From Escherichia coli O157:H7 (GTDB lineage: Bacteria; Pseudomonadota; Gammaproteobacteria; Enterobacterales; Enterobacteriaceae), in NCBI RefSeq assembly GCF_013167455.1, contig NZ_CP038328.1: a stretch of 64,000 bases of DNA; one strand, given 5' to 3'. Position numbers: made by a program. Shown here in pieces: positions 18,001 to 21,000 of this stretch. Numbering within the stretch: position 1 is the stretch's first letter; every line of letters starts with the position of its first letter.

Positions 18001-21000
18001 CGCCCTCAAAAATCTGGAGCACCTGCTGCACGAGCTCAGTAACAGCATGAGTAGCCTGGGTAAAAATGACTGGCCTCTGGTGTTCATTCGCCCCCGGCAT
18101 GCCGAAATGGGCAGATGGTTAAAAGCGCATTATGATCTTTCCGCTGTCGACGGGTTTGTGCTGCCTAAATTTACCCTCAGTTCGTTAGCTGAATGGTGGG
18201 ATATCATGGTCGGGACTCACCTGTGCATGATGCCAACGCTGGAAACAGAAGATGTCTTTGACGTGGTTCAGATGCGCGAGCTGGCTACCCGTCTGGAGGA
18301 ACATCCCTGCCACGACCGCATTATTGCGCTTCGAATCGGCGGCAACGATCTTATGAACGTTGTGTCGCTTCGCCGTCCCCGGGACCTGACGCTGTATGAC
18401 AGCCCGATGGGCTACGTCATCAAAATGCTCGTTTCGGTCTTCGGCCCGCGTGATTTTGCCCTGACCGCGCCTGTATGTGAGCATATTGACGATCATGCCG
18501 TTATGGCCAGAGAGCTGGCTCTTGATATGGCACACGGGCTTGTTGGGAAAACGGCCATTCACCCGGGTCAGATAGAGGTCATTCAAAACGCGCTGATGGT
18601 CACTCAGGGTGAGCATTCTGACGCTCTGCGGATCCTGAACTCTACCCAGGCCGTGTTTAAGTCGCAGGGAGCAATGTGTGAACCCGCCACACATCGCCGC
18701 TGGGCGGCTGGCATTCTGGACAGGGCTCGTTTTTATGGGTTACAGAACGAGCAAAGCGCTGATGGAATCAGATTACTTACCGTGACCCAGCATCATTAAG
18801 GAAATCATAATGGGGTTCAGGTTCAGAAAGTCGATCAACATTATTCCTGGCGTTCGCCTCAACCTGAGTAACGGTGCACCGAGCCTGAGTGTCGGGCCGA
18901 GAGGTGCTTCCGTTTCTTTTGGTAGCCGGGGGACCTATGCCAATCTGGGCTTGCCCGGTACCGGGCTGAGTTACCGTACCCGGCTTGACCGGGCCGCGCG
19001 TTCCAGAGGTGAAAACCGGACGGCAACCGACCCGGGGCTCAGACAGGCGCTTGAGCAGAAAGCCGCTGAACTCATGTCAGCGGTAACCGCAATCCGTAAT
19101 ATTCACGAGCTGACGCCGGATCCAAAAACAGGCATCAGCTGGGCAGAGCTGGAAGCAGTATACCTGCATAACAGAACGTCGCCTTTTCAGGTTCCGGCAC
19201 CGGTGCGTCCAGAAAAGCCAGACTACCTTGTATTGCCGGAAAAGCCTGCCGAGAGCGAAGGCATTAGTTTTTTGGGTAAATGGTTTGAATCGGAATCAGC
19301 TAAAGCTGAGCGCCACGCCGAAAATCTTCGCCGGTGGCAGCAGGAGCTGATTGATGTGGAGCGTGAGAATACCCTTCGACAGCACCGGTACCAGCAACAA
19401 CGGACGGCCTGGGCCGAACAGTATGCAAACTGGAAGTTTGAAGCTGAAGAACATGAAAAACGGCTCGCCACGGCTCAGGCAGATGCCCGGCAGCAGTTCC
19501 GGACAGACGCCGCGTTTTTCGAATCATACCTGGCGGGTGTGCTGGCAGAAACTGAATGGCCGCGTGAAACGCTTGTTGCATTTGAAGTAAAGCCGGAGCT
19601 ATCAGCAGTCCTGCTGGACGTTGATTTAGCTGAGATTGAAGATTTCCCTGATAAGATTTACGGCGTTAATGCCCGGGGAACGGAGCTGACGGAAAAAGCC
19701 ATGACGCAAAAAGCCGTACGCGAAAACTATGCCCACCACGTCCATGGCTGCTTGTTCCGCCTGGTCGGTATCGTTTTACATACGCTACCTTTCGACAACG
19801 TGATTGTGTCAGGCTTTACGCAACGGGTCAGTAAGCGGACCGGCTATCTGGAGGATGAGTATATCCTGTCCTGCAAATGCACTCGCAGCCAGATGTCGTC
19901 AGTAAATTTTGCAGGCATAAAACACATTGATCCGGTTGAAGCGTTAGGCGATCAACCGGTTATTCGAAAGATGAGCAGTACCTTCATTTTTCAGCCTATT
20001 GAACCACTAACCCTTTAAGCAGGCTAAATCTTACGATGCAATTAAATACCAGACAGGCCCGGATTTTTAAGCTTGCCAACTTACTGGGCACCGGCAAGCC
20101 CGTTTCCGCTGCCGACATTATAACCAGTCTGGAATGCTCTGAGCCGACATTAACCCGGGCCCTCAAAGAGCTACGCGAGTCATATTCTGCGGAGATCAAA
20201 TACAGCAAGGCAGGTCATTCCTATCATCTCGTTAATCCGGGCCAGTTGGATAAAAAGACCCTCCGCCGGATGAATGAAGCGCTCGCACAGAATGCTGAAC
20301 TGAAAACCGGTGAGTCCACAGGGAAGGTCGTACTCGATAAGGATAAAAAAACAGCCGTGTCATTATCGCTACGCATGCGGATTCTAAGAAAAATTGACCG
20401 TCTGGCTGCGCTGAGTGACTCGACCCGAAGTGAAGCGGTAGAGAAGCTGGCTCTGCACTCCGTTGATGAACTGATAAAAGAATACAGCGCTAAAAAGTCC
20501 TGACGCTAAATCTCAGACCGGGGTGAAAACTCCGGTTTTGTCATATTTCACCTCTGTATTGGCGTGATGCAAAATGGCATCTGAATCGATCATGGTTTGG
20601 CATCCATTTCCGATCACTGTTTGGCATCACAATCGATCACGATTTGGCATGCTTCCGCTCATTGATTGGCATCCTGGTGTCGTTACGGGGAAGTCATCTT
20701 CACAGGGATCTTCAGTCAGTTAGCATTACCGACATCCATTCACCAACTTACCGGAGATAATCAATGTCAAAACCCCGATGGACGCTTGATCAGAAAAAAC
20801 ATCACGTTGCCGCATGGCGCGCCAGCGGCCTTACCCGTGAACAGTACTGTGAACTTTACGACATTCCGTTTAAATCCCTGCGCCAGTGGCCGCAGGATGT
20901 CGCAAAAGCCGAAAAACGAGCCAGAGCTCCAGAAATTATTCCTGTTTCAGTATCTGGCTCTTCCGGAATGACTGATGGCAGACCATTGTCGGATGAGCCT

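Follow-up and report, generated by a model that had tools for sequence, protein, structure and literature searches.

The terminal inverted repeats (TIRs) of IS21-family insertion sequences contain several direct repeats each (L1/L2 and R1/R2 in IS5376), which lie 23 bp apart (Spinola-Amilibia et al. 2023, PMC10122671). Each repeat of IS5376 contains two conserved regions, contacted by the HTH-1 and HTH-2 domains of the transposase IstA, and binding of this protein is highly cooperative (PMC10122671). A tetramer of IS5376 IstA wraps two ends of the element, which form the right-handed crossings found in a negative supercoil; integration requires two complete repeats, and two left ends can be used by the protein in vitro (PMC10122671).

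A short array of direct repeats of this architecture was examined in a stretch of 64,000 nucleotides of Escherichia coli O157:H7 (contig NZ_CP038328.1; hereafter, the window). The window corresponds to the tellurite-resistance island carried by E. coli O157:H7 and related STEC, identical DNA being present in 583 genomes at a coverage of at least 80%. The array is located downstream of terW, which is itself preceded by terZABCDE and a cluster of ATP-grasp/PRTase/StiP/HpcH genes. Beyond the array lie an IS66-family element that is interrupted by IS682 and then the urease genes. On the evidence set out below we conclude with high confidence that the array is the left TIR of an ISSso4-like element of the IS21 family, which was inserted 64 bp downstream of the stop codon of terW and later truncated to 109 bp (Table 1). 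The feature is thus of an ordinary and already understood kind, namely a truncated remnant carrying the terminal repeats of IstA-binding type that are found in IS21-family elements.

Table 1. Features at the junction of terW, the IS21-family fragment and the IS66-family element (positions are those of the window)
Feature	Position	Strand	Details
terW, 155 aa, tellurium resistance protein TerW (RefSeq)	20036..20503	+	ORF, RefSeq annotation of identical DNA
Terminator-like hairpin and T run	20515..20538	+	3' of terW; part of the ter locus, 5' of the IS junction
Truncated left terminal inverted repeat, ISSso4-like, IS21 family	20568..20676 (109 bp)	+	Terminal TGCAAAA, then the array
Repeat unit 1	20575..20597	+	TGGCATC tgaa TCGATCA tggtt
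Repeat unit 2	20598..20621	+	TGGCATC cattt CCGATCA ctgtt
Repeat unit 3	20622..20644	+	TGGCATC acaa TCGATCA cgatt
Repeat unit 4	20645..20666	+	TGGCATG ctt CCGCTCA ttgat
Half unit 5	20667..20676	+	TGGCATCCTG; ends at 20676/20677, where the IS66-family element cuts it
IS66-family left end (starts GTGTCGTTACGGGG) and tnpA (20764-21093)	20677..21093	+	Three-copy flank comparison; RefSeq annotation

The repeat array and its units

Five TGGCAT cores were identified on the + strand, starting at 20575, 20598, 20622, 20645 and 20667 (spacing of 23/24/23/22 bp), within the sequence 20560-20680 (...gtgaTGCAAAATGGCATCTGAATCGATCATGGTTTGGCATCCATTTCCGATCACTGTTTGGCATCACAATCGATCACGATTTGGCATGCTTCCGCTCATTGATTGGCATCCTGgtg...). 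The hexamer occurs 28 times on this strand of the 64-kb window. With a Poisson expectation, five or more occurrences per 100 bp have a probability of ~1.3e-9 per position and ~8e-5 over the whole window, and none of 300 shuffled windows held even four within 100 bp. Tandem Repeats Finder reported a period of 23-24 with 3.3-3.8 copies and 72-76% matches, and agreed with a separate repeat-finder run on a period of 22-24 bp.

An initial annotation of this DNA had described five repeats at ~23-bp spacing here, between the gene of a small HTH regulator and orf1 of an IS66 element. The number, spacing and coordinates of the repeats were confirmed, as was their position between these two genes (terW and the tnpA of the IS66-family element, respectively). 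The repeat motif it gave is valid for the hexamer core present in all five copies, while the exact 9-mer TTTGGCATC occurs at only two positions of the array (20596 and 20620), the remaining three copies being AATGGCATC, TTTGGCATG and ATTGGCATC. Likewise, there are five cores, but the last of them belongs to merely half a unit, the rest having been cut off by the IS66-family element. A second conserved block had been missed altogether: the unit of the array is bipartite, with TGGCATC followed ~11-12 bp on by (T/C)CGATCA. The two blocks are separated by a spacer of 3-5 bp, and their centres are ~11-12 bp apart. In the second block of unit 4, an A>C change is found relative to active copies of the element. 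No sigma-70-like site was detected inside the array by a promoter scan, in the window copy or in an active copy.

Full-length ISSso4-like copies and the identity of the fragment

Over 102 bp, the sequence 20575-20676 shows 94% identity with the left tip of full copies of a 2639-bp insertion sequence, which begin TGCAAAATGGCATC. Full-length copies were identified in 226 E. coli genomes, at up to 34 places (about 30 copies) per genome. In an APEC chromosome (L002) and in pRM11911 (L003) the array precedes istA, the gene of a DDE transposase, by ~100 bp, and istB, the gene of an AAA+ helper, comes next. IstB was found to match Pfam IstB_IS21 (1e-60), while IstA matches rve and Mu-transpos_C_2. 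IstA also showed similarity to the solved structures of IS5376 IstA (8B4H/8Q4D; ~1e-13) over an aligned stretch of 75-373, with the N-terminal HTH region lying outside it. An IstA of Shigella sonnei with 97.7% amino acid identity is annotated as belonging to the ISSso4 family, as is the IstB of the E. coli copies by RefSeq; the name ISSso4 used here rests on that RefSeq annotation.

The full copies have the termini TG...CA (TGCAAAATGGCATC...GGAATACGCA; terminal TGCAAAA...ACGCA), with the right terminus also given as GCGGAATACGCA. At the left end of active copies, TGCAAAA is followed by six units of 22-24 bp, each initiated by TGGCAT. The right end, read as its reverse complement, has TGCGTATTCCGCTC followed by 2-3 units of the left-end kind (TGGCATCGAAGTCCGATCAGCGAT, TCGCATCCATTCGATCAACC), the units thus being inverted at this end. 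Three copies that split genes (L004, L005 and L007) are flanked by direct target duplications, ACTGGA (6 bp), TTACCTG (7 bp) and GTAAA (5 bp), respectively, all within the 4-8 bp that is a criterion of the IS21 family. A full insertion in tssG of E. coli Eco_70239 (L006:270-2970) possesses a 13-bp direct duplication (CTGCCGGGAATAC), a length that is unusual in the IS21 family. The copy in APEC E956 (L002:4971-7609) joins two truncated phage genes, one for a tape-measure protein and one for a terminase, and no target duplication was found at it. The joining of two truncated genes without such a duplication indicates that the IS has mediated a deletion or rearrangement within a P2-like prophage.

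The fragment at 20568-20676 is identified as an IS21-family left TIR because it has the same tip, terminal TG and unit structure as the full istA/istB copies. Its own 5' terminus is the TG at 20568, and RefSeq lists no feature at the fragment. When a full copy was compared with the window by BLAST, nothing besides 20575-20676 was matched, whether past the IS66/IS682 nest or elsewhere; istA, istB and the right end have therefore been lost from the window. The number of units is found to vary among left ends, with six in an active copy (L004:301-460), five in the window remnant (20575-20676) and ~4 in a decayed remnant (L012:3501-3600), and versions of 132 bp and 62 bp were identified by BLAST in other records. 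Such variation in the number of a 23-bp unit among copies of one left end suggests that slippage, or unequal exchange among the units, has taken place.

These findings also bear on the likeness to plasmid iterons pointed out in the initial annotation. On an iteron reading, the array would be a remnant of a replication origin at which a Rep initiator binds the repeats. Iterons (the repeats bound by RepA, pi or TrfA) are likewise tandem direct repeats of ~20 bp to which protein binds cooperatively, and the ~22-23 bp repeats seen here are similar to them in size and phasing. No rep gene adjoins the array, however, its immediate neighbours being terW and the tnpA of the IS66-family element. Elsewhere, on chromosomes as well as plasmids, the array is always the tip of the 2639-bp istA/istB element with its target-site duplications, and the presence of inverted units at the far end of this element is in keeping with a transposon rather than an origin. 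The iteron proposal was rejected for want of a rep context and in view of this position at the tip of an element with target duplications; its probability is considered negligible.

The junction with the ter locus and the IS66-family element

BLAST analysis of 20400-20800 resolved the region into three pieces, each of which was found independently in other genomes. The first (20400-20567) comprises the 3' end of terW and its flank, and is found alone in O104:H4 and in large plasmids. The second (20575-20676) is the array, which is found alone in many genomes with 93-94% identity. The third, from 20676-20678 onward, is the left end of the IS66-family element, and the matches to it leave the array uncovered.

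As it lies immediately next to the IS66-family element, the array might be regarded as a sub-terminal part of that element. In two other copies (L010 and L011), though, the DNA to the left of GTGTCGTTACGG is unrelated, and since the three copies compared, whose left flanks are unrelated, have GTGTCGTTACGG and the sequence after it in common, the start of the element was placed at 20677. The IS66-family element is therefore a separate element abutting the IS21-family fragment. Membership of the array in it was rejected owing to the differing left flanks of the other copies, and we give this reading virtually no credence. The initial annotation had itself named, as an outcome that would refute it, a conserved sub-terminal position of the array in many copies of the IS66-family element. 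In spirit this is what was found, a conserved IS end occurring in many copies, but the element belongs to the IS21 and not to the IS66 family. The IS66-family element itself extends over ~20677-25656, with tnpA at 20764, tnpB at ~21059 and tnpC split into 21503-22360 and 24968-25585, and is interrupted by a copy of IS682 on the minus strand (22364-24780). With regard to its right end, neither a full copy (L011), with no more than 73% identity over 1.7 kb, nor an inverted-repeat search was informative.

On the other side of the fragment, intact ter loci of an O104:H4 chromosome (L008) and a plasmid (L009) matched the window at 99% as far as exactly 20567 (...TTGGCGTGA). Past the equivalent of this position, both possess a 464-bp spacer between terW and terY1, which is followed by terY1-terX-terY2-terY3. 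No TGGCAT is present in this spacer, and the DNA of the spacer and of terY1-terX-terY2-terY3 is absent from the window. The terminator-like hairpin downstream of terW is conserved in the intact loci. As homology to the ter locus stops exactly at the IS21-family end and terY1-terX-terY2-terY3 are absent, the junction 20567/20568 marks the breakpoint of a deletion in the O157-type island through which these genes are missing.

The comparison with intact ter loci decides upon the other possibility raised by the initial annotation, an operator array bound by the 155-aa regulator, TerW. On this reading, the protein would bind the five repeats and regulate itself or neighbouring genes. The grounds for this are proximity, the array beginning 72 bp after the stop codon of terW, and a weak HTH signature in TerW (a match to Pfam HTH_11). 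The array lies downstream of terW, though, past the terminator-like hairpin and not at a promoter. It is lacking from the intact ter loci of the O104:H4 chromosome and the large plasmid, in which terW is 97-99% identical, while in hundreds of genomes it is situated beside istA with terW not nearby. A search of the terZ promoter region (13464-13785) for the 9-mer with up to one mismatch gave no hits, and a limited literature search found nothing usable on DNA binding by TerW. Since ter loci that lack the IS also lack the array, it is not a TerW operator; this reading was rejected on account of that absence and of the absence of the array from the terZ promoter region, and is rated as extremely unlikely. 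terW lies next to the repeat element but is no part of it. The more general idea behind both binding proposals, that of a cooperative binding-site array, does fit the terminal repeats of IS21-family elements; the iteron and operator versions of it are unsupported. With the array accounted for as an IS end, the reason to test binding of TerW or a Rep protein to it is removed.

Function, history and comparison with described systems

Three relatives of the ISSso4-like element with ~47% IstA identity (ISEc12, ISPsy40 and ISAs29) also carry a left array with a period of 23 and inverted units at the right end. Their conserved block pairs are GAGATC...AATAACAT in ISEc12, ATTCCACG...CTTGGACA in ISPsy40 and ATTCCGG...GTGAACAC in ISAs29. 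The sequence of the array thus varies with the transposase while its architecture is kept, which is the pattern expected of binding sites for a cognate protein. In an intact ISSso4-like element, each unit of ~23 bp would form a bipartite site for one IstA subunit, with the blocks TGGCATC and (T/C)CGATCA, about one helical turn apart, being read by the two N-terminal helix-turn-helix domains of the protein. The arrangement of units in a row would allow IstA to bind cooperatively and the end to be wrapped as a negative supercoil, and the left end would be paired with the inverted right-end units in the transpososome. The binding of IstA and the role proposed for each block are carried over from published work on IS5376, and the co-variation of array and IstA across relatives likewise suggests that ISSso4 IstA binds the units.

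The likely history of the locus begins with insertion of the ISSso4-like element 64 bp past the stop codon of terW. Next, an IS66-family element would have landed in, or recombined at, the left TIR of that element, and the rest of the IS21-family element would have been lost together with terY1-X-Y2-Y3. The terW/IS21/IS66 junction is the same in 583 genomes, suggesting a single old event with stable inheritance since then. With neither istA/istB nor a right end in the window, the array is a fossil and most likely does nothing today.

An alternative is that the solo end is still active in trans, with IstA from an incoming ISSso4 copy binding it and bringing about one-ended events or rearrangements in the ter island. 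Both the terminal TG and four complete units have been preserved, and the in vitro behaviour of IS5376 IstA, which needs no more than two complete repeats and accepts a pair of left ends (PMC10122671), is in keeping with such activity. Against it, the left end is present only once in several O157:H7 chromosomes (places_in_record = 1), which implies that no cognate IstA is encoded in those chromosomes; the identical junctions across the 583 genomes indicate stability; and the second block of unit 4 is mutated. Activity in trans is accordingly considered very unlikely. A broader version of this idea is that the orphan end would be a working substrate, which an incoming ISSso4 IstA could pair with a new end so that the tellurite-resistance and urease island is mobilised or rearranged, and that the six-unit left array of ISSso4-like elements, unusually long compared with the two repeats that suffice in vitro, may serve in regulation, for example in autorepression of istA. 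This is also thought improbable, and the array in the window continues to be regarded here as a remnant. Its annotation as the truncated left end of an ISSso4-like element tidies the map of the O157:H7 tellurite-resistance island, and the array clearly illustrates, in textbook fashion, the bipartite 23-bp architecture of IstA sites at IS21-family ends.

Among described elements, the closest counterpart of the fragment is the left TIR of ISSso4, with which it shares the terminal TGCAAAATGGCATC and the structure of the units. It differs from this TIR in having five units rather than six, one having been lost between units 1 and 2, and in a few point changes. The TIRs of IS5376/IS21 (8B4H, 8Q4D) similarly consist of 23-bp direct repeats at both ends, with two blocks in each and a terminal CA, and IS5376 IstA is homologous, though only distantly, to the ISSso4-like IstA, being a tandem-HTH transposase that binds cooperatively. 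IS5376 differs from the ISSso4-like element in the sequence of its repeats, in the number of left units (2-3, as against six) and in the length of IstA (about 400 aa, as against 511 aa). The left-end units, of which there are six in active copies and five in the window, exceed the two (L1/L2) that are needed in vitro for IS5376. The gap between blocks is ~10 variable bp in IS5376 as opposed to 3-5 bp in the array, and the geometry may therefore differ in detail. More distant parallels are provided by phage Mu and Tn7, whose ends also contain several transposase sites each, in numbers that are unequal between left and right. The transposase families of Mu and Tn7 are only distantly related to that of IS21, and the lengths and spacing of their sites differ. 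An analogy between the ends of Mu and Tn7 and those of IS21 has been drawn in the work on IS5376 (PMC10122671).
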